From Aplysia californica (taxonomy: Eukaryota), in assembly GCF_000002075.1 (NCBI RefSeq), contig NW_004798290.1, positions 4,906 through 68,905 on the forward strand: a stretch of 64,000 bases of DNA, read 5' to 3'. The notes beneath the pieces are model-generated. The model was given only the letters and a program-made list of their open reading frames with translations. It did no database searches and was not told the origin of the DNA. The translations under genes and the position numbers were made by a program. Positions 231 to 45,080 of the stretch are shown here, one piece after another (the stretch's first letter is position 1; each line of letters opens with the position of its first letter).

Positions 231-1751
231 CTACGTCGCGGGCTCACCTCGGGGCTCCAAACGACACTTGTAGTCTTCCGGAGATATCACTACCCCCGGC
301 TTCCAGTCTGCCGGGTTTGCTGACGGGAGCGGAACATCCTCCGGGGGGAGGAACCGAAACTTCTGGAGCAACGTGACCACGATGAAAAACACGCGGACTC
401 TGGCGAAGTTTTCCCCGGGACAGAGTCTTTTGCCAGCTCCGAACGCGAGAAGATTTTGCCGTGTGGGATGGTCCGTCTCCAGGACTTGACCGTCGGAGTC
501 GAGGAACCGCTCAGGTTTGAAGGCCCAGGGATCTTCCCACAAGTCCTCTCTGTGATGAACGCACCACGAGTTGAGGATTAGGAACGTGCCTTTAGGGATG
601 AAATGTCCCTCAAAATGAATGTCCCCATTGGCGTAATGAGGTAGCAGAAGAGGTACGATTGAGGAATATCTCAAGGTCTCCAGGATAGTTGCTTCTGTGT
701 ACGGCATGTGGCGTTTGTGTTCAAAGCTGGGGCTTTCATCTCCGATCACTTCACATATCTCAGCATACACGCGGTCCTGAAGCTTTTGGTCAACGAGGAA
801 CTGCAGAAACAGTGACGTCAGAGTCCCTGCCGTGGTGATGTAAGCAGCTGCAGCGATGTCCTGGACCATGCCCAAAATGTCATCGTCTGTCATGTCCTGG
901 AAGTTCCCGCTCTTCTGTAGCTCCGCCTGCTGCTCCAACAGGTCAGCCACGATACTGGTTGTCTCCCCTGCCCGGAACTTGTCCCGCACCGCCATAAAGA
1001 TGCGCTCCTCCAGCTTCCCCCGGGCGGCCTGGACCTCCTGGATGGCCTTCCGGTGCCACAGCCCTGGGATGTACGGCACGAAGGGAAACGTTTCTAAAAA
1101 TATCTCCGTCTCAAATGTAGCTATTACGTTTGCTTTCTCAATGAACCCGATCATGGCGTCTAGATCCTCCTCGCAGGTTTCATCTCCTTTAAGAAGGAGT
1201 CCGACAACCCAGCGGATGTAGCGAGTGAGCTCGACAAACAAAGATACGTCTCCTTCGTACCGAGTTAGACGATGGCACAGTTCTTTGGACGTAGATGTCA
1301 TCAGTTTTTCAAAGTTGTTGACGCCTTGACCGTAGAACTTTAGCACGTGATGGAAGATCTTTCTCCTCTTAAGCAATTCTTTATTGTAGCGCCCAAATAG
1401 CATGTCCTTATAGTTATAGAATAAAACTCTTCCAGTGTACGACGGGGGCCGGTCATTGCTGAGTTCCCTAGTGCTGGGATCATTGAACAGTTTACGGCAC
1501 AGCTCGGCGTTGTTCACGAAGACCACTTTACGAACGAGCGCGTTGACAAAGACCAGGTCGCCGTAACGGTCGGCCCACTTGGACGCGCACAGATGTATAG
1601 CTTCCTGTTTTACGCTTTGGATGAGCTCCCAGACACCCCGGAAGAACGGTGGCCCAGGGATTGTCTTTGTCTTCTGGCTCTTTTTCCATTCCAATCCCAG
1701 GAAGAGAATCGCTACGAGAACCGTCAGGGTGATCAGAAACTCGGCGATCAT
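231..1751 (-). CDS. Cytochrome P450, microsomal, clan-2-like (CYP1/2/17-like), intronless CDS, 506 aa; divergent paralog A
   Basis: N-terminal TM anchor and PGP hinge; I-helix DIAAAAYITT; K-helix ETLR; PWAFKPERF; heme motif FGAGKRLCPG; uninterrupted ORF. Confidence 0.96.
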   Translation of the reverse strand: MIAEFLITLTVLVAILFLGLEWKKSQKTKTIPGPPFFRGVWELIQSVKQEAIHLCASKWADRYGDLVFVNALVRKVVFVNNAELCRKLFNDPSTRELSNDRPPSYTGRVLFYNYKDMLFGRYNKELLKRRKIFHHVLKFYGQGVNNFEKLMTSTSKELCHRLTRYEGDVSLFVELTRYIRWVVGLLLKGDETCEEDLDAMIGFIEKANVIATFETEIFLETFPFVPYIPGLWHRKAIQEVQAARGKLEERIFMAVRDKFRAGETTSIVADLLEQQAELQKSGNFQDMTDDDILGMVQDIAAAAYITTAGTLTSLFLQFLVDQKLQDRVYAEICEVIGDESPSFEHKRHMPYTEATILETLRYSSIVPLLLPHYANGDIHFEGHFIPKGTFLILNSWCVHHREDLWEDPWAFKPERFLDSDGQVLETDHPTRQNLLAFGAGKRLCPGENFARVRVFFIVVTLLQKFRFLPPEDVPLPSANPADWKPGVVISPEDYKCRLEPRGEPAT

Positions 1752-1764
1752 TGTTCAGACACGG

Positions 1765-1790
1765 CTGAAATAGAAATAAAATATCATCTG
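1765..1790 (-). promoter_or_regulatory. 3' splice acceptor of a 5'-UTR intron, 13 nt upstream of the CYP A ATG
   Basis: Minus strand reads atattttatttctatttcAG|ccgtgtctgaacaATG; equivalent acceptors precede the other paralogs. Confidence 0.65.
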
Positions 1791-1794
1791 TTGA

Positions 1795-2055
1795 CTAAGA
1801 GACAGGATTTTGCTATCAGACATGGCACTGGAGACCAAATGGAAAAAGAAGAAGTCGTAGACTAATTAACACGTATAGAAGCATGATCAGGAATGAGACA
1901 ATCACCTAGGACCTGGATGTGTCAAGGCTAGAGGAAGTGGCCGGGGGTAGACAAGTGTGGCATCCACTGTTCTCTGTCTTGTGGAGAGAGTAGGTCAGTA
2001 GGTCAGTTGGTCCGTAGGTCAGTTAGTCAGTAAGTCGGTAAGTCAGTAGGTAGAT
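1795..2055 (+). mobile_element. RTE-clade LINE 3' fragment
   Basis: Similar to 47935-48164; degenerate (gtaa/gtag)n tail. Confidence 0.6.
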
Positions 2056-2071
2056 AATCAAAAGAAGACAA

Positions 2072-2221
2072 CGTCACGGTTTCAAAGACTTAGTCTGATC
2101 TGACTGCCTCACATCACGGTTTCAAAGACTTGTCTGATCTGACTGCCTCACGTCACGGTTTCAAAGAAGTCTGATCTGACTGCCTCACGTCACGGTTTCA
2201 AAGACTTAGTCTGACTGCCTC
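2072..2221. repeat. Minisatellite, about 4 units of 37-40 bp
   Basis: cgtcacggtttcaaagacttagtctgatctgactgcctca repeated at 2072, 2112, 2151, 2188. Confidence 0.9.
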
Positions 2222-2280
2222 CCACAAACGTGATACACCTGATAGAGCCCCGGAGATAGAACAAAAACGAAATAGACTTC

Positions 2281-2719
2281 TTAACCCTATCTGTACGTCG
2301 TGTTTTACAGTTGTATCCATACGACGTGGGGAACTCTGTGCCACCACGTAACCCTATCTGTACGTCGTGTTTTACAGTTGTATCCATACGACGTGGGGAA
2401 CTCTGTGCCACCACGTAACCCTATCTGTACGTCGTGTTTTACAGTTGTATCCATACGACGTGGGGAACTCTGTGCCACCACGTAACCCTATCCGTACGTC
2501 GTGTTTTACAGTTGTATCCATACGACGTGGTGAACTCTGTGCCACAACGTCCCAGAGAAGAAATTTACTCGTTAATCCTGTACGCACGCCTTGCATAGCA
2601 GTCTGTCAAAATGATTTTTGAGAAATACTGAAAGTTTCAAAAAAGACCTTCGCACTAGAAGTAATTCTAAAATGTGAAAATTGCAACAAAATGACCCCGG
2701 GGCGTACGGAGAGGATTAG
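2281..2719 (+). mobile_element. piggyBac-like MITE with 4 x 67-bp tandem left terminus (copy 1)
   Basis: TTAA-CCCTATCTGTACG ... CGTACGGAGAGGA-TTAG; units start at 2281, 2348, 2415, 2482. Confidence 0.8.
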
Positions 2720-3297
2720 ATAGAGTTGAAAAGACTCAATTAGCTCTTAAATATACTTCTGGGTTTTTGATATACCTCGTTTTCTCAAAGTTTTGGAAGC
2801 ACAAGATTATTTCTCAGGGAAGTAAAGAGTAGGCTTGCTGATCATTTTGTACAGATCATAGAGGAAGAAGTAGCAAGTATCATTTATTCTCTCTTACAAT
2901 TCCGTTTCAAGAAACAGCTGAGCATATCATCAACCTCCCACGGTACTGGAACAGAAGAGCCATTGCCTTGCTAAAACCTCATAGCCTTCCATTAAATGAC
3001 AATCTCAGTGGGTGGAAATTAATAAACTCACCCTTATGAGAGAGGTGCAACTCTCATGAAATTGAAGAGGAATTTCACTTTATTTTCTATTGTCCATATT
3101 TTGTCCATCAAAAGAAATTATTAATTCCTCCCAGCCTGACTCGGCCCAGTGACAGAAATAAACAATGTTTGACCCATTATAAGAGATACGTTCGCAGCCT
3201 GTACTCTTTCATTATGCAAACTTTATTAACCAAGGAGTGTTTTATGATGCCATGTTGGTCAATGGCCTTAAACACTGAATACACCTACTTACAAACT
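2720..3297 (+). mobile_element. RTE-X-like LINE 3' end (decayed)
   Basis: Homologous to 60762-61075 (SLPLN..L..WKL..SPL.ERCNSHEIE); ends ggccttaaacactgaata..(ttac)n. Confidence 0.6.
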
Positions 3298-4075
3298 TAA
3301 GAAAAGGAAAACTCCGAAATGAACCTTCAATTGCTTCTAGATACTGTTGTAACAGAAAATGAACGTAAAGGATTATTGTTGAATGTAAAGAAAACAGAAT
3401 GCATGGTAATATCCAAAAAAGCAGTAAATCTTAGTTGTAATCTCATTAGCAAAGGTGAAAAGATCAAGCAAGCCCAACAGGTTAAATATCTAGAATATAT
3501 GATAACATCTGGTGCCAAGTGTTCCACAGAAATAAAAAGGAGAACTACAATGGCTAAGTCCAATTTCAATAAAAATGAGCTCGATCCTGAAAAATAGAAG
3601 CATCTCAATAAACACCAAAATGAAAGTCCTGAAATGCTATGTTTGGTCAACTCTTCTATATGGCTGTGAATGCTGGACAATCACTAAAGACAGTGAAAAT
3701 AAAATAGAGGCAACAGAAATGTGGTTTCTTAGGAGACTGTTAAGAGTATCGTGGAAAGAAAAGAAATCAAATGAGGTAGTGCTTGATGAAGCCCACGTGA
3801 GACGCTCAATGTTAAAAACAATCAGGAACTGACAAATGCAGTTTTTGGGACACCTGAATAGACATAAGGGTCTTGAACATCTTGCTCTCACTGGCAAAAT
3901 TGAGGGCAAGCGAGGCAGGGTAGGCCCAGAACAGCATACTAAGGGAACCTGAACAAATGGGTAACAGGGAAAGATCAGGGAAACATAGCTTTTTTGAAAG
4001 CATCCGAGCAAAGGAATGAATGGAGAACCATGATCGCCGATGTCCGTCGCAGATCTGGCACTGGATGATGATAAC
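3298..4075 (+). mobile_element. RTE-clade LINE 3' fragment
   Basis: GLLLNVKKTECM, KYL, CYVWSTLLYGCECWT, EMWFLRRLL; (tga)n tail; frameshifted. Confidence 0.85.
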
Positions 4076-4119
4076 AAACTTAATAAATTTACTTCCTACT
4101 TATAGAGCTTAGTCATGAT

Positions 4120-7100
4120 GTCATATTCTGTGGGAGGACGCTGTGGTAGAGAAAGCACAGTGGAACAAACCCACACCCCAGCTCCAGCTCCAGGAACATT
4201 TCTGTGACTATGGAGAGGACACTTCATCCTGGCTGTGATAAGCAAGGGAAAAAAACACGGGACGTGGCAGTGTACGGGTCATAAGACATCCTTCTTTGGC
4301 GAAACAGGATGTCGCCAATGGTCACCTTTGACAATGAGAGGGACTACTCAGTCGCACTGATCTGCTACCACCCGTCTCAAACTGGGCAGCCCCCAGTCAG
4401 TACGGTGCTGATCCGTCACGTCTGTTTGTTTCTATGGGTGTGTGGAGCAAGGACAAAAACCTGAAAGGCAGACGTTAAATCCAGCACCAGGCAAAAAAAG
4501 AGTAAAACTAACCCCATGGAAACTGGGGACCTGGAATGTTAGAACAATGACATCCGGATTGGACTCTATCAACCTGGAGAAAACAGAGGACATCAGAAAG
4601 ACAGCAATCATAGACAGGGAGCTCACACGACTCAATGTAGACATCACTGCCCTGTAAGAGACCAGACTTGCTAACTCTGGTACCATCAGGGAAAGAAACT
4701 GCACATTCTTCTGGAAGGGTCATGGGGAAGATGAAATAAGAATCCATGGTGTGAGCTCTGCAGTACACAACAGATTGCCAAACAGGATCAGCACACTCCC
4801 CCCCACCCCCCAAGGTATATCCAAACGTATCACTGTCATGGAAATGGATACCGAAACTGGAACGGCTCACTTCATAAGCGCCTGCTCCTCAACCCTAACT
4901 ACAGAAAATGAGAAAAAAGACCAGTTTTACGAGGAACTTCATGATGCTATCAATAACGTCCCAAAAGCAGACCAGCTGTTTCTCATGGGCGACTGCAATG
5001 CAAGAGAAGGAAATGCAAACAAAGTATGGCCCACCTGCCTGGCACCTTTAGGGCTGGAAAATTAATGAGAATGGTCAGAGACTCTTAGAGTGCTGCAGAA
5101 ATAACAGCCTTTGCATCATTAATACCTTCTATAGTGGCAAGGACAGACACAAGGTTTCTTGGTGCTATCCAAGATAAGGCCATTGGCACCAAAACAACTT
5201 CATCTTTGTCAGAAAGAAAAACGACAAGACGGTAAAGCAAACAAGATCTTTCTACAGCACAGACTACCACGCAAAGCACCTTTTCTTACAGCTAAGGCAA
5301 AGATAGTCACACAAAAAACCCACCAAGAGCTGAAAGACAAAAGAAACGTAAGATCAACGCAAAAATACCAAAGACACAGTGTTATGGGCAGGTGGGGCAC
5401 CTAGAAATCGTGTTTTGGGGTCACATTATTCAAATTGGGGTTATCACATATTATAGTACCTGGACATTTCCTGAACAATATCCAGAAACGTATGTAAGCC
5501 TTGCTACACAGTACAGGTTTTCCAGTCTTTTCTTACCTTTATCGGCTATTTTCTCACAATTCTATTATTTCACACATTATCCCATTTTTCTGCTCTGTTT
5601 CCAGTTCAATTTCAAGGTAACTTTCACAGGATACCAACAACACCTAGTTCTCAATTTTGGCTTGTTGAATTTTTTATTAATGGAGCAGTTTTTGATTTAT
5701 GGGCTACAAAGCATGAATTTTTCACTTTTCCCCCTTTTTTGCAACAACCCAATTGTAAGTGTCATGAAATAAAAACTAAAGCATATATCAAAAATTCAAC
5801 AGCCCAAATTTAAGAGCTACATATTTCCTTTTGAAAATGTCAAATTAGACATGAATAAGGTAATAAATAAGGGAATAAAATGGGATTGAAAAAGGTATAC
5901 AAAATCCAAAATGGCCACCGTTTCCATAGCAACCGATTCACAAAATACTTTTAAAACTATTGATTTAAAATTCCCAATAGCATACAATGTCCTACAGTAA
6001 ATATGAGCACTCGATGCCTTGTAATAGCTAAAAAAAAAAAAAAAAGACCTGTGGCCCACCAGTCCTTAAAGGCAAAATTCCAAGAACATGTTAAAGAACA
6101 GCTACAACATCTAGATACTTATCCCCAGACAACATGAAATCAACGATTTATAATTTTACGTCAATTACCTTTGGAATAGAAAGACCTCACAAGGAGGACT
6201 GGGTTGAAGCCAGCGCACCATCACGAGCACCATTACTCGAGAAAAAGCGTAAGTTCCTGATAGAACACAGCACAAATCCAACAGAGAGTACAAAGCAACA
6301 ACTACGTGCTGCTAAATCCAAAAGTGCGTCAATCAGTACAGGGACAAATTATGCTCAGAAATCCAACAGGCAAGCGATACAGGTAATATCAGGAGTATGT
6401 TAGACAATATCAGAATTGCTATTGGACCGACAGCAAACAAAGTGGCACCTCTAAAGTCTCCGATAAGCGAACAGCTGGCAAACAAGAAGAAACAAATGGA
6501 AAGATGGATGGAACATTATTCAGACTTATCCTCACAAGAGCGAAATGTTGATAGACAGCTACAAGAGGCCATTCGTCAGTTCTCCAAAATCTCAGAACTT
6601 GACACAACACCAACAGAAGAAGAACTCTCTACTTCAATCGATGAACTCGCTTGCAGAAAAGCAGGACGAAATGACTACATACCTGCTGAAGTGCTGAAAG
6701 AGAGCAAAAAGACCCTCCTCCCATATCTCTACAAGCTACTAACGACTTGTTGGCGGAAAGCAAAAATTCCACATGACATGAGAGATGCCAAAATCACCAC
6801 ACACTACAAAAACAAAGTTGACAAAGGAGATTGCAACAACTACAGAGGTATCTCACTGCTAAGCATCACTGGAAAAGCTTTTGCTAGGATCATCCTGGAG
6901 CGACTTCAGAAACTATCTGAAAGAGTCCTTCCAGAGAGCCAGTGTGGTTTCAGATCAAACCGCTCAACAATGGACATGATCTTTATTATTCGTCAGCTAC
7001 AAGAAAAATGCAGGGAGCAACAACTGCCATTACATACTGCGTTCAGAGATCTGACAAAGGCTTTTGATACAGTCAGTAGATCAGGACTGTACATGGTGCT

Positions 7101-8340
7101 TGGAAAAATTGGCTGTCCCCCAATACTGCTTCAGCTCATCATTTCTTTCCAGGTAGCAAGATATGAAGGCCACCATTCAGTTTGACGGTTCAACATCAAG
7201 CAGTTTCAACGTCGATGGTGGAGTAAAGCAAGGTTGTACCTTAGCACCAACCCTTTTTGGCATTTATTTTGCTGTCTTACTGCAATGCGCATTCAAAGAG
7301 TCACCTGGGGATGTTTTCCTCCTCTGGAGAACTGATGAGTTGATCTTAAATCTTGCTCGTCTCCGAGCTAAGACCAAGGTCAACAAAACCACAGTACGAG
7401 CCCCCCCCCCCCTTTCGCCGATGACGCTGCCCTTGTTGCTCACAGGAAATCAACCCAACAAACAATGATGGACCGCCTATCAACAGCATGCAAGGTCTTC
7501 AGCTTGGTCATCAGTGGTAAGAGAACAGTCATCCTTACTCAGGAAGGTCCAGAGCAGAGCCATATTTGGCTGAACGACACGAAACTTGAGACTGTGGATA
7601 CGTTCTGTCACCTTGGGTCTACCATCAGCTCTACAACATCGCGGGATGATGAAATCAACACCAGGATAAGGAAAGCAGCAACAATGTTTGGAAGGCAGAC
7701 ACAGCAAGCGTGGGAAAGCACAAGATTAACCACCAAAACAAAGATTACGATTTATTAAGCATGTGTCATCAGCGCACTCCTTTATGGATTCTGAAACAAG
7801 GACCCTGTACAGCAGACAAGAAAAACGCCTCGACATCTTACATCTCAGATGCAGTCGCAAGATAAAAACACATTTTGTGGCTTGACAATGTTACTAATGT
7901 TGAAGTGTTGGCCCAGGCAAAACTTCAGAACATGACAACTATCCTGTGTTCAAGGAACTTGCGATGGCTGGGGCAGGGGAAGAGAATGGAAGACAACCAG
8001 GTTCCAAAGCATGTTCTTTATGGAGAACATGCCCAGGGAAAGAGACCAAGAGGAAGGCCAAAACTGAGGTACAGAGACACCTGCAAAAATAGCCTATCTA
8101 AGCTTGGACTAGATGTCTGCACCTTGGGGAGAAATAGCTGAGGACAGGAAAACGTGGAGGAAAATGATAAAGGAAAGAACTGAAATTCTAGAAAGCAGCC
8201 CCAGAAACAACCAGGCTGAGAAGCGCCAACAATGAAAGGAAAAACAGAGCTTCGATCCACCTCATTGGCATGCAAACACTGCGACAGAATCTGCGCTTCA
8301 AGCTTAGGAAGAATTAGCCATGAAAGAAGCTGAATGAAGA
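4120..8340 (+). mobile_element. Near full-length decayed RTE/BovB-type LINE (APE endonuclease + RT)
   Basis: GTWNVRT, MGDCNAR, NYRGISLLS..GK, PESQCGFR, DLTKAFDTV, GVKQGCTLAPTLF, ADD, C-terminal CxxC..SH; many stops and frameshifts; 5' boundary approximate. Confidence 0.92.
5382..6069. mobile_element. Kolobok-like non-autonomous DNA transposon inserted in the RTE
   Basis: TTAT-GGGCAGGTGGGGCAC ... GTGGCCCACCAGTCC-TTAA (imperfect TIRs, TTAA-type TSD); removal leaves contiguous KDTVLKAKFQE. Confidence 0.65.
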
Positions 8341-8399
8341 CAACCTTGAGTCCATCTCAATCAAAATTGGCCGTCTGCATACACGAAAAGAGCCTTACA

Positions 8400-8832
8400 C
8401 ATAAGCTGTACTTTATCAACAAATGGCGCTCGACAAAATAACAAAATTGGAGAAACAGGCATTTTCCCACCACTATCGCAATTTCAATTAAATTTTTGGT
8501 TTTTTGGTGAATCCTTTTTGTGTCCAAATATAAACACATTTCCTTGTGAACTGTGTTGATTTAAAGCTAATAAAAAAAAGGTATTATTTTCTGTTTTCAA
8601 GGACTCTTTAGCTATTGATGTTGCCAAACTTCGGTGGCGATTTTCTCGCTATTTTTACCGCGGAAACCAAGTGAACTTACCGCTTTCAATCACAAATATC
8701 TTCACTTCAGCTCAAGATAGATGGATATTTTTTCCATCGAAAGCAAGATAAATAAACAAGCTTTAAGATGATACCAATAACTCGACATGCACAAACATTG
8801 ACGAACGTCTGATTCCACCGCTCCGTGACACA
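8400..8832 (-). mobile_element. Divergent inverted copy of the TGTGAGG-TIR element family
   Basis: Reverse complement matches ...ggtggaatcag..ttcgtcaa..ttattggtatcatcttaaagcttg and ggtaaaa..agcgagaaaat. Confidence 0.65.
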
Positions 8833-9768
8833 CGTATATCTGTACCGATATTCCAACAGTCCAAGGGGTGGCTCCTGCCAGACCCAGTGAATATATGTAA
8901 CAATATTGTTACTGCTTCGTGATCCGTGTGAAACCTCTGTGACGGAGTGAGAGAGTGCAGGAGTGAAAGGATGAGGGGATGAGGGCGTGTGAAGGAGGTA
9001 AGGTGTGAGGAGGTAAGGGGTGTAGGAGGTGAGGGGAGAAATGATGAGAAGGGGAGGGCGTGAGATTTCAGAACACTTACAGAGTGCAGCAGGGTGCAGC
9101 AGAGTGAGACAGCTGGCCTTGAGAGGCGGTGTGCATGTGACAAATGGAAACTTGCAGAGAGCGCTGAGCCTCCACTTTGTACTGTCGGTGTAAAGGGGAC
9201 CGTGGAACGATGTCGTAGGTTTTTGACACCCCTCTCTGTTTGTTTTTGTGAACATCATCTAGATATCTAGGTCATTTTTCTTTCTTTTCTGCTGCCACGT
9301 CTACAAGTGTGCACTTGTGGGGACTTTCCAGGTTTTCCTTTCCCCCTTTTTTTTTCTTTCTCTGTTTGTTTTGGCTGCTGCTGGTTTTTGGCTTCGTGTT
9401 TTTAAATGGAGAAAAGTAAAACTCGCTTCCTGGACTGGAACGACCTTCATTATCTGTGGAGGATCTTCCTTGCACGAAGCCAGCGTGGGGCAGAGAGGAG
9501 AGGAAAACAACTGCACGCTAGCAACCCGCGATGATCACCAACGTCACAGCTCGCCGCGGGTACCAGTGCCTTCCTCCCCTTCCCGAGATTGTCTATTTGC
9601 CGGTACAGAACGATGAGCTATTAGTTGTTCTACCTTCTTATAGATCTAGTTACGCTTGTGACCTTCAAGCGCCTTTCTGTTTTTGAGAAGAATTTTCAAC
9701 AAACCAAGCACTTGTCGACTGTTGGGGCAAAATCAATGTCGACTTTGTGATGTCTTGATATAATAATA

Positions 9769-10204
9769 TGTGAGGCAGCGTGGTAGAATCAGCCTCTCGT
9801 CAATTTTTGAGCATATTCAGTTATTGGTATCATCTTAAAGCTTGTTCATTTGTCTTTGTTCGGATGAAAAATTTATCCATCTATCTTCAATTGACGGCGA
9901 GATATTTTGGATTGAAGGAGGTAGGGGTCACTTGGTTTAAGAGGTAAAATTAGCGAGAAAATGGCCGCCAAAGCTTGGTAAATTCCAAAGCTGGAGAGTC
10001 CATGGAAACTGTAAATTAATATTTTTGTGCCTTTAATCAACGTTTTTCGGTGAAATCCTCAAAGGAATGTATTTGTAAAGGGACATAAAAGTTGTTGAGC
10101 CAAAAAACAAAAATGTTATAAAAATTGCAAAGCAGGGAGACAACTGCTGTTTTCTTTGATTTCATTATTTTGACGAGAGCCTGATACCACCACGCTGGCT
10201 CACA
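9769..10204 (+). mobile_element. ~435-bp non-autonomous TIR element (TGTGAGGCAGCGTGG...CCACGCTG(G/C)CTCACA), subfamily A
   Basis: ~35-bp TIRs; near-identical to 51520-51956. Confidence 0.88.
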
Positions 10205-10261
10205 TATAAAACAATTAGAAACAACGACTATGAAATGTGTGTTTTGTATTCCCACCACGTC

Positions 10262-10500: not shown

Positions 10501-10629
10501 AAATCCAATGCTCGGTGACAAGTTTACGAGTGACCTCTAGTCCGACAGAACATCATCAGGAACAAGAAAGTTCGCGAAGTCGTGTTTCCTCAAATATAAA
10601 ATTTATTAGTGAAATTGTAGATGTGTTGC

Positions 10630-14778: not shown

Positions 14779-16645
14779 CAGCTTTCCTTAGTCTTTTCAT
14801 AGTGTGTGATGTGGTGCCTTCATCTCTCTGTGGCTGTTGAACCATTAAACTAAATGCTTTTTTCTCCCGTTTTGACAAAGGCAGTCCGTGTGACTTGCCA
14901 TGTGTGAACACCGACACAAAAGAAAATAATCCTGTTGTTGTTGAAGAACGTGAGGTTAGATGTGTGTTTGGACGTGTGAATGTGAGAAAGGCGTGTGGTC
15001 CAGACGGTGTGCAACCCAAAATTCTGAAAATGTGTTCAGCACAACTTAGTTTTATTTACACCTATATTATCAACCAGTCGTTGTTGACACATGCTATTCC
15101 CACTATTTGGAAATGTTCTGAAATCGTCCCCCTTCCAAAGAAAGAAAAAATTACTGAAATGAATGACCTGAGGCCAATAGCCTTAACATCGGTAGTTATA
15201 AAATGTCTAGAAAAAATTGTGCTAAAAAGACTACGAACGTACATAGAACCCACCCAGGACCCTCTACAATTTGCATATCGTCACGGGAGAAGTGTGGAAG
15301 ACGCCATTTTACTCTTTCTTGACAACATATATAGACACTTAGACAAGCCTAAAACATACTGTAGGATCCTGTTTGTTGATTTTTCGTCAGCCTTTAATAC
15401 TATCCAGCCAGCTATCCTTTTAAAGAAGTTAGAAAACATAGGTGTTAACGTCAATTTAATATCATGGATAGGCAATTCTCTGACCAACCGAACCCAGTAT
15501 GTAAAATTAAAACATTCTTCATCGACATACATCACAACAAATACAGGGGCCCCTCAAGGATGTGTTTTGTCACCAGTTTTATTCACACTATACACGAACG
15601 ATTGCCAAATAAGCAACAATAACATCAAGTTGATAAAATTTGCAGATGATTCAACTATAATTGGGCTAATTCAGGCTGACCATAACGAAACCGCTTACCG
15701 GAATTTTGTACTTAATTTTTCTGAATGGTGTGAAAATCATAAGCTGCTTTTAAATGTGAAAAAAACAAAAGAACTTGTCGTTGATTTTAGAATAAAGAAA
15801 CTGCCCCTGCAGCCACTCAAAATGAAATGTGAAAACATCGAACAAGTGTCAGACTATAAGTATTTGGGTGTTACAATAGACAACAAACTCAACTGGCGTG
15901 TCCAAACTTCTCTCCTGCATAAAAAAGTGAACAAAAGACTATTTTTTCTTAGAAAGCTAAAGTATTTTAAAGTTGATAAAACATTGATGTCCATGTTCTA
16001 CCATTCAACCATAGAAAGTATGATCAATTTTTGTATAACAGCATGTGCCGGGAACACAAGACAACAAGATAAAGAAAAATTAAATCGACTAATACGGAAA
16101 GCATGTAAAATTTCAACATCTTCATTCCCGTACTTGGATGAATTGTACATCACAACTTGCACTAAGAAAATTAATTCCATCTTTTTAGACAACAAACATC
16201 CCTTGTTCCCTCAAATAAAAACATCAGTCAGAAGTAAAAGACCCATGTTTCTGATCTGTAACAAAGAAAGATACAGAAGGTCATTTTTACCATAATCTAT
16301 CAAAATGCTTCCATCTTAACCATCTTGTTTAGTGTACTTACGACCTTAGAGCATGCATCAAAATAACATTGAGTGTGTATCTAGCTTACGATTATTATTG
16401 TTTATATTGCTGCTCATTTATATTATGTAGGTGATTGTAAGCCTACACTTGNNNNNNNNNNNNNNNNNNNNNNNNNNNNNNNNNNNNNNNNNNNNNNNNN
16501 NNNNNNNNNNNNNNNNNNNNNNNNNNNNNNNNNNNNNNNNNNNNNNNNNNNNNNNNNNNNNNNNNNNNNNNNNNNNNNNNNNNNACCAAACCAATGTGCC
16601 AGGATCTGGACAATAAAGATGTATCTTATCTTATCTTATCTTACC
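14779..16645 (+). mobile_element. Rex1/Babar-clade LINE; RT open over 14895-16295
   Basis: NDLRPIALTS, DPLQFAYR, ILFVDFSSAFNTIQP, TGAPQGCVLSP.LF.LYTND, KFADD, YKYLG; aataaa plus (tatct)n tail at 16610-16643. Confidence 0.9.
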
Positions 16646-31392: not shown

Positions 31393-32199
31393 TATTCCTG
31401 AAGGTTGCCAGTAACATAGAGTGGATTCCACAAATCTTACAGCTAGGATCAATGTCAGGCTTGCGTCAGGAATCGGCCATTAAAAAAACCGAGGATGACT
31501 AGCGGCCAAGAGTTTCCAAACAAAGATGAGGATCAAGTTCCGAGGCCGCGTGACCCATAAGTACTGGAGTCGGCGGAGGAGGCTGCTAGTGTACGCCATC
31601 CCTCAACGACAGCTGGGGTCTTGTCGGAGCTAACAGAAACATACTGAGTCGAGGACGGAACAGGAATACAGCAGAAAGTTTTGATTTGTTATCCGAGTTC
31701 TACTGTCAGGTAACTATTCAAATTATGTAGAAAAAAATTCTGATTTAGTTTCAGTTCACTATGGTAAAAATGTTTTACAGCGCTTGCAACTGCATCAGGT
31801 CAAGTGAGTGCGCGGGACACAGGGTGGATACTCCCACATTAGTTCATAGCACGCCGTGGTTCTACTTTGCAAGTTACAATGATTGAAGTATCTAAATATA
31901 TATTATGCTAAAAATCAGTTTTAAAAGCAGCAATTTGCATATTTAAAGGAACATCAAACTTTGGTGTAGAGACAACAAATGGTCCTTACTAAATCGAGAA
32001 TTCTGTTGGAGATCAACGATGGAAAACTCACTATTTAGATGAGTGCATTTATAATTATTTTCTTCGGGTTTCTTTTCAGCTAGGACATTTTCTTTGGATG
32101 TGCCTGATCGTAAATCTGTTATAGAATACCACACAAAAACTGATGGTTTTTCTTCTTCCTGTAGGAGGTATTTATTTGTCAGGGGGTACGTTCAATCTT

Positions 32200-35990: not shown

Positions 35991-36039
35991 TGCATTTTTT
36001 AGGGGAGTGGGAGGTGAGGAGAAAAAAATGTAGGAATTC

Positions 36040-36071
36040 TCATTGTCATGATTGTTTTCCTCCTTTCTCAG
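36040..36071 (+). promoter_or_regulatory. 3' splice acceptor 16 nt upstream of the CYP B ATG
   Basis: ttgttttcctcctttctcAG|gtccctcactgtcacgATG; conserved at 45097-45130 and 49943-49975 on the minus strand. Confidence 0.7.
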
Positions 36072-36087
36072 GTCCCTCACTGTCACG

Positions 36088-37605
36088 ATGATCTCCGAGT
36101 ACCTAATAGCTCTCGTGGTCCTAGCTGCGATATTCCTGATTGGGTCAAGGTTCAAAAATCGAAAACCTACCACGGTTCCGGGCCCGTCCTTGCTGCAAGG
36201 TCTGTGGGACTTTCTGCAGAGCATGAAGCAGGATTCTCTCCATCTGACGGCAGCAAAGTGGGCCGACCAGTACGGCGATATCGTATCGTTAAACACGCTG
36301 TTTCGTCAGGTAATTTTCGTCAATAGTGCTGCGCTCACTCGTAAACTTGTGTGCGATCCAAGCACAAGAGAATTCTCCAACGACAGACCGCCCACTTTCA
36401 TGGGAACAGTTTTCTTCTATGGCGCCCAAGACATTTTGCTTGGCCGTTATGGCAAAGACTTGCTCAAGAGAAGGAAAATCTTTCATCACTTACTTAAGTT
36501 TTATGGCGAAGGTGTCCATAACTTTGAAGCACTGATGAAAACAACGTCCAAGGATCTGTGTCAGCGCCTAACTAAATACGAAGGAGACGTATCTTTATCG
36601 GAGGAGCTTGCCCATTACATTCGGTGGGTGGTCGGACTTCTACTCAAAGGACCAGAGACGTGTGAAGAAGATTTAGATGCCTTGATTGGGTTTATCGATA
36701 GAGCAACTGAATGTTTTATATTTGAAAAGGAAATAGTCTTAGAAACAGTTCCTTTTGCGCCTCACATCCCTGGACTGGGCCTGAGGAAGCTTGTGGGTGA
36801 TCTAAAAGTCGCCCAAGAAGTGATGAAACAGAGGTTTTTTCTGGCTATTCGAGAAACCTACCACAAAGGGGAAAGAACTGGTATAGTTACTGACATGTTA
36901 GACCAACAGGCAGAGCTAAAGGAGAAAGGAAACGCCTCCGAAATGCCTGATGATTTAATTCTTGGTTTAATCCAAGACATCGCTTCAGCTGCCTATGCAA
37001 CAACAGTAGGGACATTGAATTCCTTATTTTTGCAGCTTTTGGTGGACCAAAAGCTTCAGGAGCGCATACATGCAGAGATCTGTGAAGTAATAGGAGATGA
37101 AAGCCCCAGCTTTGAGCAGAGACGGCACATGCCATTCACAGAAGCAACTATCCTGGAGACCTTGAGATATTCCTCAACAGCGCCTCAGCTGCTACCTCAC
37201 TACGCATGTGGGGACATTCATTTTGAGGGACATTTCATCCCTAAAGGTACCTTTCTTATCCTGAACGCCTGGTATTTCCACCATAGAGAGGACTTGTGGG
37301 AAGACCCCTGGGAGTTCAAACCAGAGAGGTTCCTGGACTCAGATGGTCAACTCCTCGACCCAGAACATCCCACACGACAGAACCTTCTACCTTTTGGGAC
37401 TGGGAAAAGATCTTGTCCTGGTGAAAGTTTCTCGAGGATTCGTATCTTTTTCATCGTGGTCACTTTGCTTCAGAAGTATCGTTTTCTGCCCCCCGTTGAT
37501 GTACCGCTCCCGTCTACCAACCCAAAGGACTGGAAAACAAAGACAGTAATTTGTCCTGACGAGTTCAAGTGCCGAATGGAGCCCAGACTCACAGCAAAGG
37601 CCTAA
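36088..37605 (+). CDS. Cytochrome P450 paralog B, intronless CDS, 505 aa
   Basis: ATG at 36088 matches the paralog N-terminus MISEYLIAL; DIASAAYATT; ETLR; PERF; FGTGKRSCPG. Confidence 0.95.
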   Translation: MISEYLIALVVLAAIFLIGSRFKNRKPTTVPGPSLLQGLWDFLQSMKQDSLHLTAAKWADQYGDIVSLNTLFRQVIFVNSAALTRKLVCDPSTREFSNDRPPTFMGTVFFYGAQDILLGRYGKDLLKRRKIFHHLLKFYGEGVHNFEALMKTTSKDLCQRLTKYEGDVSLSEELAHYIRWVVGLLLKGPETCEEDLDALIGFIDRATECFIFEKEIVLETVPFAPHIPGLGLRKLVGDLKVAQEVMKQRFFLAIRETYHKGERTGIVTDMLDQQAELKEKGNASEMPDDLILGLIQDIASAAYATTVGTLNSLFLQLLVDQKLQERIHAEICEVIGDESPSFEQRRHMPFTEATILETLRYSSTAPQLLPHYACGDIHFEGHFIPKGTFLILNAWYFHHREDLWEDPWEFKPERFLDSDGQLLDPEHPTRQNLLPFGTGKRSCPGESFSRIRIFFIVVTLLQKYRFLPPVDVPLPSTNPKDWKTKTVICPDEFKCRMEPRLTAKA

Positions 37606-37699
37606 TCTTGTTCTACCTAAATGGAACCGTAGCTCAAGCATTTCAGAAATAATCATAGACTTGACAATGTGTTCTTTCTTTTCTTTCAAGGCGTTTTTT

Positions 37700-38990
37700 G
37701 TCCACTGTCGGATGTAACTCTTGGACAACCACCTCCACTCTATTTGTCAGCTTTTTCCGTGTCCAGGTTGCACCCTCTGTCCTCCTCATTCGGGTCTACC
37801 TCTAGATCTTTTTCCTGTTCTTTGTCTCCATTCGGTAAATTTTTTGTCCATCNNNNNNNNNNNNNNNNNNNNNNNNNNNNNNNNNNNNNNNNNNNNNNNN
37901 NNNNNNNNNNNNNNNNNNNNNNNNNNNNNNNNNNNNNNNNNNNNNNNNNNNNCTTTGTGGACTTTAACGCCCACTTTTAGGTTTTGATATTTATGATATT
38001 TCAGTTAATGTCCATAATTTGTTGTTCATAGTGCCAGACCGTGGGCGAATCTTACGTCTTCCGGGTGTTCTCTATTAATTAAAATTCCTTTACTGAAAGT
38101 TTCCTTTTTGAACATAATATCTTTGATTGCTGTTGTGAATAATCTGGGTGATATGGGGTCTCCTTGTCTCAATCCTTTTTCTATTGTTAATTTTTCTGAC
38201 TCGTGATTGTCAAGATGAATTATAGCTGACCCTGGATGTTTATCAAGAATGGAATTATGTCTTGTTAATGTTCATGTTCTTGGATCTTCAAAAATTGCAA
38301 AGTGATCGATGGAGTCAAAGGCTTTTTCATAATCAATGAAACCAACACAAAGCAGTAGATTGTACTCGCAGCATTATTCCGTTACTTGATTCAATGATGT
38401 AGATGGCCTGTTGTTGAGTATACTTTTCTAGATCCAGCCTGTTCTCTTTGAGCACTCTCATCTTTTTACTCTAGAGTCCCCTTGTAAACAGTTCATCATG
38501 TCGAGACAGTCAACTTATATTTATGGTCTACAGTTCTTTACGTTTCTTATGTTTCGCCTTTCATACAAGATTTATATTGCTGCTTCTTGCCAATATTCAG
38601 ATATTGTAGGAGTCTGTAACGTTTTATTGAATGCTTTAGTTCTAGAATGTTCTCGTAGTTTGAACTTGACATTGTGTGTAAGTCGTCAGTCACCCTGTCA
38701 TAGCAAGGCGCTCTCTTTCATACCTCTTTTCAGAGCAAGTTCTATTTCTTCTTTTTTAAGGGAGCATTTCTTCGATGTGTTCACTTGTTTTCAGAATTGT
38801 TTTTGGTGAGGTCAGTGATGTTTGTTACGGCTTTTTCTAGAAGTCTACACATACACCTGGTGTCTCCTCCCAATCGGAGGTTACTTCACCAGTTGTTTCT
38901 AACATGCTTGTGAATTTCTTTCGGCATCCGTGTTTGTATATATCATTAGGTCCTTTACCACTTTTTATTTTTTGTTCGATCTTTTCGAGT
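37700..38990 (-). mobile_element. Decayed RTE LINE immediately 3' of CYP B
   Basis: GKRSRGRP; GLRQGDPISPRLF; FIDYEKAFDSI on the minus strand; duplicated at 55560-56519. Confidence 0.75.
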
Positions 38991-39019
38991 ATAATTATAC
39001 ATGTTACATGAATATCGTG

Positions 39020-39240
39020 GGGTCGGTGGGCTAGTGGTCAGGCTAACAGAATCTCAATCGTGAGATTGCTGGCCCGGGGGTTCGAGCCTCAGTTCAGTCC
39101 GACGTTGTGTCCTTGGGAAAGACACTTTACACGAATTTCCAACTTGACTCGGTCCTTTGGGAAAAGGACGTTAAACTTGGAGGTCCCGCCTCTATAATAA
39201 CCTAACAGTGTTGATAGGGCGTTCAACTTTTACCATTTCA
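39020..39240 (+). mobile_element. tRNA-derived SINE with CORE-like and V-like modules
   Basis: A box tgggctagtgg, B box gttcgagcct; tgtgtccttgggaaagacactttac (CORE-like); ggacgttaaac..gaggtccc (V-like); tail gtgttgatagggcgtt. Confidence 0.7.
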
Positions 39241-40058
39241 CCATTGTCACATAGATATCTCTCTATCAACTCTGTGTGTGTGTGTCTCTCTCTCACTCTC
39301 TCTCTCTCTCTCTCACTCTCTCTCTCTCTCTCTCTNNNNNNNNNNNNNNNNNNNNNNNNNNNNNNNNNNNNNNNNNNNNNNNNNNNNNNNNNNNNNNNNN
39401 NNNNNNNNNNNNNNNNNNNNNNNNNNNNNNNNNNNNNNNNNNNNNNNNNNNNNNNNNNNNNNNNNNNNNNNNNNNNNNNNNNNNNNNNNNNNNNNNNNNN
39501 NNNNNNNNNNNNNNNNNNGCACGCTCTCCCACGGCGAAGCACGACTAACAGAGCTAGTCCCATATTTTCATTTCCCATATCCTTCTGTTAAATCCTCCCC
39601 CCCGGGGGGGGGCGGGCGCCCTTCGTTTTCTCTTTTTTCGGTGTATATGTGTGTGTTTTTTTTTTCCCCCCCCCAAGATACCCTGGGGGTGGGGGTCTCT
39701 CTTTGGGGGGGTTCGACAGATATCTCTATCTCTGTTCCCGTACGCCCACACGGGGGCCTTTCAAGAGGGNNNNNNNNNNNNNNNNNNNNNNNNNNNNNNN
39801 NNNNNNNNNNNNNNNNNNNNNNNNNNNNNNNNNNNNNNNNNNNNNNNNNNNNNNNNNNNNNNNNNNNNNNNNNNNNNNNNNNNNNNNNNNNNNNNNNNNN
39901 NNNNNNNNNNNNNNNNNNNNNNNNNNNNNNNNNNNNNNNNNNNNNNNNNNNNNNNNNNNNNNNNNNNNNNNNNNNNNNNNNNNNNNNNNNNNNNNNNNNN
40001 NNNNNNNNNNNNNNNNNNNNNNNNNNNNNNNNNNNNNNNNNNNNNNNNNNNNNNNNNN

Positions 40059-41138
40059 AAAAGAGAACAGATTGAATCCTGTATGGGGATATTGTATTTC
40101 ACTGTTTCTAGAAGATGAGAAAATGGCAAGGACGTGTCTTTAAAAAATCAGACGACTGTGGTAAAATGTCTAGGCTGTTCATCGTTGCTCGTTAAAGACA
40201 AGAGTTCCATTCCTGTGTTAGGAAGCTTATATTACTGAGTGCTTCCATCTGTCTGTTAGGATGTGCCAAGCCCGGGTTAGCGCTGACAGTTGTAGTCAGA
40301 GCCTTCCGCCTAATTAGTAACCTAAATTGTGTTGTTAGAGGCTGAAAACATGTAGAGTAAAGCATCCTACAAGGAGAAAACGAATGGTCCGTGTATTTGG
40401 GAGTCCTTCCTCTCCACGACAAACGCCAGAAGTGGTGGAATGTTCGGTAAGGCCATACAGTCGACCAGAAGTTCCAGATGACCTAACCCAAANNNNNNNN
40501 NNNNNNNNNNNNNNNNNNNNNNNNNNNNNNNNNNNNNNNNNNNNNNNNNNNNNNNNNNNNNNNNNNNNNNNNNNNNNNNNNNNNNNNNNNNNNNNNNNNN
40601 NNNNNNNNNNNNNNNNNNNNNNNTTTAAAAATAAATGTACATGCATTATGTATCTTTTCTTGCTGCTATATTTACGTTTCTTTTGTTTCTTTATTTGTTT
40701 GATTTTTTGTTGTTGTTGTTGTTGTTGTTTTCAACATTAGAATTTGAATCTCAGTCAAATATTTCTCAATCACATGCAATCGTTAAGAGAAATGAAGAAA
40801 CTGCAATAAAACATATTTAAACATTTGGGGCCTGGGACTACTATACAGTCTACAATAATATGATCTGCTCTGTCGGTTGTTTCAATAGGCAAGACGAGAA
40901 TTATGATAGATTCAAACAAGGAACTGTCATGGCTTTCAGTCTTTGCTCTCTATTAAAGAAAAACACTTTGCTCCTTCTGCGCACATTGGACGTGCAAACG
41001 AAAGTCAAAGCACTAGTCTCGCTTAAGTCAAGTGTCGTGAACAATATTTTTCCCTCTTGCCCTTCATTTAGTCCCAAACAGAGTCGAATGCTGCTCTCTG
41101 TAGTAAACAAGAATTATGTGAGAGTTCTCAGGCTTGGG

Positions 41139-41196
<58 letters not shown>

Positions 41197-41247
41197 GTGG
41201 AAAACTCAAGTCTATGGTTATTTCCGAATGCTTGAGCTCAATTCTCT
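40059..41247. repeat. 3' flank of CYP C, duplicated at ~42516-43547
   Basis: Colinear high identity; this copy has an expanded (AT)n at ~41143-41193. Confidence 0.9.
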
Positions 41248-42388
41248 TTACGTCTGACAAGTTTTGGCCTCTCCTTTGAGTCTGGGTTCCATTCGGCACT
41301 TGTATTCGTCTGGAGAAATCACTGCCTGTATTTTCCAGTCCCGTGGATGCACAGACGGGAGCGGGTCATCAACGGGGGGCAAAAACCGATACTTCTGAAG
41401 CAAAGTGACCACGATGAAAAAGACGCGAATCCTTGCAAAACTTTCACCAGGACAAGATCTTTTCCCAGTTCCAAAAGGAATAAGCTTCTGTCGTGTGGGA
41501 TGTTCTGGGTCGAGGAGTTGACCTTCAGAGTCCAGGAACCTCTCTGGTTTGAACTTCCAGGGGTCTTCAAAGGCGTCATCTCTATGGTGGAAGTAAAAGG
41601 CGTTCAGGATAAGAAAAGTACCTTTAGGAATGAAATGTCCCTCAAAATGAATGTCCCCATTGGCGTAGTGAGGTAGCAGAAGAGGTACGACTGAGGAATA
41701 TCTCAAGGTCTCCAGGATAGCTGCTTCTGTGTAATGCATGTGGCGTTTGTGGTCAAAGCTGGGGCTTTCATCTCCTATCACTTCACAGATCTCTGCATGT
41801 ATGCGGTCCTGAAGCTTTTGGTCCACCACTAACTGCAAAAACAATGTTTTCAATGTCGCTACCGTTGTGGCATAGGCAGCAGCAGCGATGTCCTGGACTA
41901 AACCAATGATTAATTCATCAGGCATTTCGGAGGCGTTTCCTTTCTCCTTTAGCTCTGCCTGTTGGTCTAACATGTCAGTAACTATACCAGTTCTTTCCCC
42001 TTTCTGGTAGGTTTCTCGAATAGCCAGAAAAAATCTCTGTCTCATCACTTCTTGGGCGACTTTTAGATCACCCACAAGCTTCTTCAGGCCTAGTCCAGGG
42101 ATGTGAGGCGCAAAAGGAACTGTTTCTAAGACTACTTCCTTTTCAAAAATGAAACACTCATTTGTTCTATCGATATACTCAAGCATAGCATCTAAATCTT
42201 TTTCACACGTCTCCGGTCCTTTGAGTAGAAGCGCGACTACCCACCGAATGTATCGAGCAAGCTCTATCGATATAGGTATGTCTCCTTCATACTGAGTCAG
42301 GCGATGACACAGTTCTTTGGACGTTGTTTTCATCAGTGTTTCAAAGTTGTGGACGCCTTGGCCATAAAACTTTAGAACTTGATGAAAG
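41248..42388 (-). CDS. Cytochrome P450 paralog C, C-terminal ~379 codons (5' part is at 49509-49926)
   Basis: FHQVLKFY...DIAAAAYATT...FGTGKRSCPG...CQT*; open frame up to the gap. Confidence 0.88.
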
Positions 42389-43547
42389 NNNNNNNNNNNN
42401 NNNNNNNNNNNNNNNNNNNNNNNNNNNNNNNNNNNNNNNNNNNNNNNNNNNNNNNNNNNNNNNNNNNNNNNNNNNNNNNNNNNNNNNNAGAGAGAGTAAT
42501 TCATATGTCTACACAAAAGAGAACAGATCGAATCCTGTATGGGGATATTGTATTTCACTGCTTCGAGAAAATGAAAAAATGGCAAGGATGTATCTTTAAA
42601 AAATCAGACGACTATGGTAAAATGTCTAGGCTGTTCATCGTTGCTCGTTAAAGACAAGAGTTCCATTCCTGCGTTAGGAAGCTTATCTTATTGAGTGCTT
42701 CCATCTGTCAGTTGGGATGTGCCAAGCCCGGGTTCGCGCTGACAGGTGTGGTCAGGGACTTCCGCCTATTTAGGGATCTGAATTGTGTTGTTAGAGGCTG
42801 AAAAATGTAGAGTAAAGCATCATACAAGGAGAAAACGAATGGTCCATGGACTCGGGAGTCCTTCCTCTCCACGACAAACGCCGGAAGTGCTGGAATTTCC
42901 GGTAAGGTATTACGGTCTACCAGCTGCTCCAGTTGACCAAACCCAGCACCAAACGTCCTCAGGAGAGAGAGAGAAGTGTTTTGTTTTTTTAAATAAATGT
43001 ACATGCATTATGTATCTTTTCTTGCTGCTATGTTTAAGTTTCTTTTGTTTCTTTGTTTCTTTCCTTTTTTGTTGTTTTCAACATTAGAATTTGAATGTCC
43101 ACCAAATATTTCTCGATCACATGCAATCGATAAGAGAAATAAAGAAATTACATTAAAAATAGTTAAACATTTGGGGCCTGGGACTACTATACAGTCTACA
43201 ATAAATTGATCTGCCCTGTCGGTTGTTTCAATAGACAAGACGTGAATTATGATATATTCAAACAAGGCACTGTCATGGCTTTCAGTCTTTGCTCTCTATT
43301 AAAGAAAAACACTTTGCTCCTTCTGCGCACATTGGACGTGCAAACGAAAGTCAAAGCACTAGTCTCGCTTAAGTCAAGTGTCGTGAACAATATTTTTCCC
43401 TCTTGCCCTTCATTTAGTCCCAAACAGAGTCGAATGCTGCTCTCTGTAGTAAACAAGAATTATGTGAGAGTTCTCAGGCTTGGGTATTATATACATGTGG
43501 ATAACTCAAGTCTATGGTTAATTCCGAATGCTTGAGCTCAGTTCTCA

Positions 43548-45080
43548 TTACGTCTGACAAGTACCGGCCTCTCCTTTGAGTCTGGGTTCCATTCGGCACT
43601 TGTATTCGTCTGGAGAAATCACTGCCTGTATTTTCCAGTCCCGTGGATGCACAGACGGGAGCGGGTCATCAACGGGGGGCAAAAACCGATACTTCTGAAG
43701 CAAAGTGACCACGATGAAAAAGACGCGAATCCTCGCAAAACTTTCACCAGGACAAGCTCTTTTCCCAGTCCCAAAAGGAATAAGCTTCTGTCGTGTGGGA
43801 TGTTCTGGGTCGAGGAGTTGACCTTCAGAGTCCAGGAACCTCTCTGGTTTGAACTTCCAGGGGTCTTCAAAGGCGTCATCTCTATGGTGGAAGTAAAAGG
43901 CGTTCAGGATAAGAAAAGTACCTTTAGGAATGAAATGTCCCTCAAAATGAATGTCCCCACAGGCGTAATGAGGCAGCAGAAGAGGTACGACTGAGGAATA
44001 TCTCAAGGTCTCCAGGATAGCTGCTTCTGTGTACGGCATGTGGCGTTTGTGTTCAAAGCTGGGGCTTTCATCTCCTATCACTTCACAGATCTCTGCATGT
44101 ATGCGGTCCTGAAGCTTTTGGTCCACCACTATCTGCAAAAATAATGTTTTCAATGTCGCTACCGTTGTGGCATAGGCAGCTGCGGCGATATCCTGGACTA
44201 AACCAATGATTAATTCATCAGGCATTTCGGAGGCGTTTCCTTTCTCCTTTAGCTCTGTCTGCTGGTCTAACATGTCAGTAACTATACCAGTTCTTTCCCC
44301 TTTCTGGTAGGTTTCTCGAATAGCCAGAAAAAATCTCTGTCTCATCACTTCTTGGGCGACTTTTAGATCACCCACAAGCTTCTTCAGGCCTAGTCCAGGG
44401 ATATGAGGCGCAAAAGGAACTGTTTCTAAGACTACTTCCTTTTCAAAAATGAAACACTCATTTGTTCTATCGATATACTCAAGCATAGCATCTAAATCTT
44501 GTTCACACGTCTCCGGTCCTTTGAGTAGAAGCGCGACTACCCACCGAATGTATCGAGCAAGCTCTATCGATATAGGTATGTCTCCTTCATACTGAGTCAG
44601 GCGATGGCACAGTTCTTTGGACGTTGATTTCATCAGTGTTTCAAAGTTGTGGACACCTTGGCCATAAAACTTTAGTACTTGATGAAAGATTTTCCTTCTC
44701 TTGAACAAGTCTTTTCCATAACGGCCAAGCAAAATGTCTTGAGAGTCATAAAAGAAAACTCTTCCCATGAACGTGGGCGGTCTGTCGTTGGAGACTTCTC
44801 TTGTGCTCGGATCGCACACAAGTTTACGCGCGAGCCTCGAACTATTGACGAAAACTACTTGACGTAACAGCGTGTTCACCGACACGATATCGCCGTACTG
44901 GTCCGCCCACTTTGCTGCCGTCAGATGGAGAGAATCATGACGCATACTTTGCAGAAAGTCCCACAGACCTTGAAGAATGGATGGACCAGGAACCGTTGTA
45001 GGTTTTCGATTTTTGATTTTTGACCCAATCAGGAATATCGCAGCTAGGACCACGAGAGCTATCAGGTACTCGGAGATCAT
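43548..45080 (-). CDS. Cytochrome P450 paralog D, intronless CDS, 510 aa
   Basis: TM anchor, PGP, DIAAAAYATT, ETLR, PERF, FGTGKRACPG. Confidence 0.96.
   Translation of the reverse strand: MISEYLIALVVLAAIFLIGSKIKNRKPTTVPGPSILQGLWDFLQSMRHDSLHLTAAKWADQYGDIVSVNTLLRQVVFVNSSRLARKLVCDPSTREVSNDRPPTFMGRVFFYDSQDILLGRYGKDLFKRRKIFHQVLKFYGQGVHNFETLMKSTSKELCHRLTQYEGDIPISIELARYIRWVVALLLKGPETCEQDLDAMLEYIDRTNECFIFEKEVVLETVPFAPHIPGLGLKKLVGDLKVAQEVMRQRFFLAIRETYQKGERTGIVTDMLDQQTELKEKGNASEMPDELIIGLVQDIAAAAYATTVATLKTLFLQIVVDQKLQDRIHAEICEVIGDESPSFEHKRHMPYTEAAILETLRYSSVVPLLLPHYACGDIHFEGHFIPKGTFLILNAFYFHHRDDAFEDPWKFKPERFLDSEGQLLDPEHPTRQKLIPFGTGKRACPGESFARIRVFFIVVTLLQKYRFLPPVDDPLPSVHPRDWKIQAVISPDEYKCRMEPRLKGEAGTCQT

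Follow-up and report, generated by a model that had tools for sequence, protein, structure and literature searches.

An Aplysia expansion of cytochrome P450 genes inside an old clan-2 clade of molluscs and annelids that lacks the I-helix acid

We analysed a 64,000-nt window of Aplysia californica contig NW_004798290.1, which contains a cluster of cytochrome P450 (P450) genes and fragments, named here A to F; all coordinates refer to the whole window. In the four copies with an I-helix (A to D) the acid of the canonical acid-alcohol pair is gone and the Thr is retained. The window genes are a sea-hare expansion inside an old acid-less clan-2 clade of molluscs and annelids, for which human CYP2D6 gives a precedent of ordinary catalysis. 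As the acid is missing also in CYP2D6 and in about a hundred relatives from molluscs and worms, these are likely ordinary detoxifying enzymes that use oxygen rather than carriers of new chemistry. Judged from sequence, the spliced and purifying-selected genes probably encode CYP2D6-style membrane-anchored monooxygenases that use P450 reductase and O2, presumably on dietary or foreign lipophilic compounds.

The window proteins have the PF00067 fold with ExxR, PERF and the Cys heme loop, and group with the CYP1, CYP2, CYP17 and CYP21 enzymes of clan 2. Their N-terminal anchor (mean hydropathy of 2.4–2.6 over 19 amino acids) is followed by a PGP hinge. An earlier sequence-based reading of this DNA, the original prediction, had reported four acid-less I-helix motifs with intact Thr, ExxR, PERF and heme Cys; all four are present, three of them on the minus strand, and the intact residues were confirmed. 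It had also reported a C-helix Trp replaced by Leu, which we found in A, B and D, while that stretch of C is absent from the assembly. In sequence alignments the I-helix register is ungapped against SAGMVTT of CYP2D6 and GAGVETT of zebrafish CYP17A2, and Ala304-Thr305 of D align with the Glu-Thr of CYP17A2 (numbers counted from the printed alignment). Since the acid is absent in CYP2D6 as well, the acid-alcohol pair is not required for membership of clan 2.

Searching the genome with D, we scored 84 candidates and accepted 82 of them as matches. The close family consists of 16 copies on ten contigs, and in every one the acid is replaced by A, I, V or L. Thr or Ser is retained in 16/16 copies through three codon families, ACN, AGC and TCC, a pattern that points to selection for the hydroxyl. 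A sister group whose genes contain introns is represented by 11 exons, all acid-less, in which His precedes the acid site and Thr is retained (11/11); together, at least 27 acid-less genes or exons are present in the genome. The acid was kept in 12/12 other P450 I-helices seen at the same loci. The sister genes (L039-L048, L053) are clustered on contigs C45 and C478 and elsewhere, with an intron within the I-helix motif (both exon ends are visible for one gene). Paralogs L007-L010 of the genome have Asn two residues before Thr, and three of the four also have Asn for Asp297; by their sequence, they are the best candidates for an altered active site.

To place these genes, a profile of 21 acid-less sequences was compared with 1.84 billion representatives, and the top 150 among 7758 hits with E of 1e-30 or below were obtained. 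The tree held 169 domain rows from 219 proteins; a row was admitted if its I-helix was complete and it had 400 or more aligned columns, and of the 32 proteins P0041-P0072, largely CYP81 of plants, 29 were excluded. As the query profile was acid-less, the share of acid-less rows cannot be taken as a survey for mollusc P450s in general. A single clade of 103 rows, the seed sequences among them, was recovered, in which 97 rows are without the acid and six bear it; outside the clade the acid is kept in 56/66 rows. Support for the clade was 0.97 in FastTree, 0.987 without the 24 I-helix columns, and 97.6 by the Shimodaira-Hasegawa-like approximate likelihood ratio test on a 64-row subset. The tree without the I-helix rules out that the clade is an artefact of the motif. 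The remaining 10/66 rows outside the clade, including P0073 (Batillaria), represent independent acid losses.

Taxa were found for 14 of the 28 clade rows looked up: ten molluscs and four annelids. Mollusc members are Lymnaea, Physella, Haliotis, Saccostrea, Mercenaria, Mya, Solemya and Potamilus, and also Pomacea and Littorina; annelid members are Capitella, Owenia and Dimorphilus. On this tree the acid loss is old, common to gastropods, bivalves and annelids, and not lineage-specific, at variance with the lineage-specific family that had been proposed and that is further contradicted by printed data for Capitella. The caveat attached to that proposal, namely that clan-2 P450s without the acid might be widespread among molluscs, was right. 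The Aplysia expansion alone (10 tree rows, support of 1.0) looks lineage-specific. A further profile search of a large protein set gave no additional mollusc members, and the ESM Atlas returned generic fungal P450 clusters only. No description of the clade as such and no paper on these Aplysia genes was found in the literature searched, which did not extend to subscription journals or the P450 nomenclature database, so that a CYP number may have been given to the family before.

Two markers are particular to the clade. Arg is found at L-helix position 452 in 95/103 clade rows vs. 0/66 outside, where Glu is usual, and HPxR stands ahead of the heme loop in 69/103 vs. 0/66. Arg452 is present in all six acid-bearing clade rows, so the Arg is no simple compensation for acid loss, and no family-specific Asp or Glu column reached 70%, which speaks against one clade-wide replacement acid. 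The acid site is occupied by L, V, I, A, T, S, G or F and is hydrophobic in 74/103 rows, with D or E in the six. Thr or Ser is retained in 97/103 rows, the heme-loop spacing is canonical in 93/103, and the Arg or Lys after the C-helix Trp site is kept in 103/103. The other motif changes do not stand out as special: Gly is still found in 65/103 clade rows and Tyr in just 22/103, and Trp is present in 35/103 clade rows and absent in 9/66 outside. AAVDTT, GAVETT and AGYETT were found in acid-bearing Capitella P450s. Six clade members, including Mya and Potamilus sequences (P0120, P0136, P0139, P0151, P0209 and P0127), are also without Thr, with Asn, Glu, Pro or Ala; by sequence these, and not the window genes, appear the better candidates for non-standard chemistry.

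The closest relatives in print are the CYP3052-CYP3056 genes of Capitella, which resemble the window genes in belonging to clan 2, lacking the acid, keeping Thr or Ser and being mostly single-exon. Table S5 of Dejong and Wilson (2014) lists 33 of them, with the acid in 0/33 and Thr or Ser in 33/33 (PMC4229089). In the part of that work compared, 16/18 rows are single-exon, and in its passages on motifs and function the authors rank the I-helix as least conserved among the motifs and propose a xenobiotic role, with the acid loss undiscussed there (PMC4229089). I-helix variation is likewise called common in passages on the cnidarian CYPome (PMC8110760). Capitella ELU17903.1 (CYP3052A-like by eye) nests in the clade and has both clade markers. 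The Capitella genes differ in keeping Gly and the C-helix Trp and in having Thr, Val or Ile, not Tyr, before the acid site. P450 families are delimited at 40% identity or more; the window proteins share 27.7–28.8% with P0202, the one CYP3052-type member compared, and by that comparison fall outside the CYP3052 family.

Comparisons in silico pointed to CYP2D6 as the best-matching enzyme of known structure. It was the top PDB sequence match (E of 2e-45), and for the model of D (predicted local distance difference test score of 90.5) it was the best Foldseek match (template modelling score of 0.81), with every row down to rank 25 being CYP2D6 among the matches listed. VIA-align gave Z of 40.2 for CYP21A2 (root-mean-square deviation of 2.5, 431 aligned), 39.5 for CYP1A1 and 38.7 for CYP2D6, and CYP21A2, CYP1A1, CYP76AH1, CYP2D6 and CYP17A1 all lie within 1.5 Z units. 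CYP17A1, CYP21A2 and CYP1A share fold and clan with D (Z of 38.7–40.2) and have lent their names to its database homologs; CYP17 differs in keeping the acid and in lying outside the clade, and the automatic names do not mean orthology. CYP2D6 has Val308 at the acid site and keeps the Thr, its Asp301 is matched and its Glu216 probably so. It differs in belonging to another family and in keeping Gly and the C-helix Trp, and shared use of basic amines is not evidenced for the Aplysia enzymes. CYP subfamilies are drawn at 55% identity or more, and the window proteins, at 26–27% to CYP2D6, do not belong to the CYP2D subfamily.

According to passages in PMC13692739 and PMC4030948, CYP2D6 carries out normal hydroxylation and O-demethylation although it lacks the acid, and these together with parts of PMC6104999 describe the oxidation of amines anchored by Glu216 and Asp301. 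The PDB lists CYP2D6 V308E as a mutant; no paper on its kinetics was found in the literature searched. In simulations described in part of PMC7864194, CYP2D6 docks P450 reductase through Arg132, 133, 140 and 440. These align with Arg129, Lys130, Lys137 and Lys440 of D. In the clade the share of rows with a basic residue at these sites is 103/103, 88/103, 71/103 and 63/100, respectively, about equal to the outgroups (64/66, 58/66, 44/62 and 48/65). The site of Glu213, at the end of helix F, is acidic in 14/15 rows of the sub-clade in which the Aplysia genes lie vs. 3/63 outside.

In the mechanism that we propose, P450 reductase would give two electrons at the basic proximal face, O2 would bind, and the retained Thr would hold in place the water needed for protonating the iron-peroxo species. 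The carboxylate that was lost would be either dispensable or supplied from elsewhere, candidates being Glu213 or Glu215 of helix F and Asp297 of the I-helix, and the former acid site would now line the pocket as a hydrophobic residue. The suggested substrate class is deduced from the gene expansion and the diet of the animal only: Aplysia feed on chemically rich red algae and modify algal metabolites, as told in passages of PMC4771992.

Several observations weigh against such ordinary, CYP2D6-like monooxygenases. VIA-align places CYP21A2 and CYP1A1 level with or above CYP2D6, and acid loss in CYP2D6 would be convergent, which makes it a precedent and no close homolog. The Glu of D at the position of CYP2D6 Glu216 adjoins a 3-residue alignment gap, and an F-helix acid is not clade-wide (23/103 at the Glu213 site, 46/102 at the Glu215 site). 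The C-helix Trp is lost in 15/15 own-genome copies with the site visible. Variability is higher at the substrate-recognition sites (1.45 bits) than elsewhere (1.08 bits), and 5/467 shifts reach the former value; there is no sign of positive selection at them, because synonymous change is also raised (ratio of nonsynonymous to synonymous proportions of 0.41 vs. 0.35 elsewhere). In the literature searched, no assays of CYP3052-type enzymes or of any clade member were found.

The strongest alternative keeps the dependence on reductase and assumes slowed protonation, so that the ferric-peroxo or hydroperoxo species would do the chemistry (C-C lyase, deformylase or epoxidase), possibly with substrate-supplied protons and on endogenous substrates. 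We regard this as possible but unlikely. The very long preference for a hydrophobic residue at the acid site would favour it, and the clade's own polar features, Arg452 and HPxR, would suit it; yet Arg452 is shared by the acid-bearing rows. The sister group differs between trees, being CYP17-like enzymes in one, which would favour such chemistry, and CYP2-like enzymes in the other, which would not. In passages of PMC9112060 a disrupted acid-alcohol pair diverts the cycle, the examples there being mutations of the Thr, whereas CYP2D6 turns over normally without the acid. Repeated large expansions, moreover, suit xenobiotic work better than a single hormone step. The boldest form of the argument, to which we likewise give a low chance, is that the acid was lost before the phyla split and oxygen activation was rewired, with the carboxylate moved to helix F in gastropods and the helix L Arg gained. 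A distinct proton route or ferric-peroxo chemistry would result, and the clade could include missing lophotrochozoan hormone- or defence-tailoring enzymes.

Considerably less probable are peroxide-using or isomerase enzymes without a redox partner. CYP5A1, CYP8A1 and CYP74, to which the original prediction had likened the window P450s, share with them a non-canonical I-helix. In these enzymes, which belong to other clans, the I-helix Thr is replaced, whereas it is kept in the window genes. The absent acid, the change of Gly to Ala and the Asn of L007-L010 would fit this explanation, and CYP74 genes are likewise mostly intronless in the relevant passages of PMC10813956. The same passages describe a nine-residue heme-loop insert and need of neither O2 nor redox partner in CYP74 (PMC10813956). 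In the window proteins the heme-loop spacing is canonical and the insert absent, the basic reductase-contact residues are retained, and both sequence and fold neighbours are clan-2 monooxygenases. The likeness is further weakened by retention of the Thr across the close family and nearly all of the clade, and by the best structural match, CYP2D6, being an acid-less ordinary monooxygenase. CYP74, CYP8A1 and CYP5A1 were not among the 50 matches listed by VIA-align, an absence that is no exclusion. Passages of PMC9961538, PMC13711265 and PMC11423352 gave nothing further on this question.

No sequencing run was recorded as RNA; therefore splicing alone was taken as evidence of transcription, and depth was not used for gene ranking. 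For D, contigs from 3/4 runs break at acceptor 45098, all with the same loose sequence beyond. The first exon of D has no match in the window, and its sole match in the genome, with one mismatch, is the first exon of a further full-length paralog, L002 (G000:C1020:83597-85126). L002 lies ~15 kb past the window end, is 92% identical to D and has its first exon ~4.9 kb upstream. For A, contigs from 3/4 runs break at 1764-1765, beyond which they run into an exon at either 8682 or 9081, and a GTAAGT donor follows both exons. These two alternative non-coding first exons (8681-9110, minus strand), ~400 bases apart, were seen in different runs, which suggests alternative promoters. A copy of D at 99% identity, spliced in the same way, was contained in run X9, which is labelled as a second organism; mislabelling or a mixed sample is the probable cause.

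Ratios of nonsynonymous to synonymous substitution rates (dN/dS) were computed by the Nei-Gojobori method for 17 paralog pairs with bootstrap bounds; for 7/17 pairs dS exceeded 1.3, near saturation. The ratios ranged from 0.07 to 0.53, with 17/17 below 1 and upper bounds of at most 0.72. Together with the spliced transcripts, this upholds the earlier claim that the motif is maintained and not decayed; silent genes with dN/dS near 1, which had been named as the contrary outcome, were not what we found. Decaying duplicates with an eroded motif, to which fragments E and F, the likely allelic copy C and the higher dN/dS of young pairs (0.25–0.53) might point, are largely refuted and highly improbable in view of open frames of 505–510 amino acids, these ratios and transcripts, and the same motif type in annelids.

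The I-helix motif of A to D was shared by descent, as the dS values among them indicate (0.057 for C/D, 0.26 for B/D and ~1.4 for A/D), and the four copies are not independent. Over 1138 coding bases, C and D have 26 differences; both C and E stop at a 100-N stretch, with 26 identical bases common to the cut ends; and RNA-like contigs mix C and D letters, 11/15 variant letters within the C range matching C. From these similarities C and D may be alleles or haplotype copies of one gene, and the window may hold three loci, not four. The near-identical D stands between C and E, apparent halves of one N-split gene (41248-49926), and a haplotype duplication in the assembly is possible there.

The features are listed in Table 1. 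Fragment F starts abruptly after a short tandem duplication and repeats the 3′ end of B and its flank at 96% (54930-55695); it is likely a truncated duplicate. RVT_1 retrotransposon frames lie within and beyond the first intron of A (6316-7758 and 14841-16295), with more pieces of related sequence at about 26-27 kb and 45-48 kb.

Table 1. P450 genes, fragments and sequence features in the window
Feature	Position	Strand	Remarks
P450 gene A	231..1751	-	506 aa, single coding exon; spliced contigs in 3/4 runs
A I-helix DIAAAAYITT	831..860	-	Ile at acid site, Thr present
A F-helix end F-E-T-E	1104..1115	-	first Glu aligns near CYP2D6 Glu216
A non-coding first exon 1a, 3′ end	8681..8710	-	GT-AG intron 8680 to 1765; runs X5, X6
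A alternative non-coding first exon 1b, 3′ end	9081..9110	-	GT-AG intron 9080 to 1765; run X1, one low-depth contig
B first exon, candidate 3′ end	31696..31709	+	similar to L002 first exon; GT donor adjoins
P450 gene B	36088..37605	+	505 aa, single coding exon
B I-helix DIASAAYATT	36976..37005	+	
P450 C, residues ~131-510	41248..42388	-	cut by N stretch; possibly D allele or 3′ half of E
C I-helix DIAAAAYATT	41863..41892	-	
P450 gene D	43548..45080	-	510 aa, single coding exon; splice acceptor 45098-45097
D L-helix Arg452	43725..43727	-	clade marker
D I-helix DIAAAAYATT	44163..44192	-	Asp297 = CYP2D6 Asp301, Ala304 = Val308, Thr305 = Thr309
D F-helix end F-E-K-E (Glu213, Glu215)	44436..44447	-	candidate for the relocated acid or for anchoring of substrate
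P450 fragment E, residues 1-139	49509..49926	-	ends at N stretch; without I-helix
P450 fragment F	54995..55463	+	5′-truncated copy of B 3′ part, 96% over 701 nt; without I-helix

Loss of the I-helix acid, where the Thr is intact, is thus no evidence of exotic chemistry, which corrects the alarm raised by the motif. Many mollusc genes automatically named CYP17A1-, CYP1A- or CYP2-like fall into one separate clade with simple markers, namely no acid, HPxR ahead of the heme loop and the helix L Arg, and this separateness bears on ecotoxicology and on claims of molluscan steroid enzymes. If the proton route does differ, the clade would offer the largest natural collection in which to test the need for the P450 acid-alcohol pair, with its natural acid-bearing members available as comparison.

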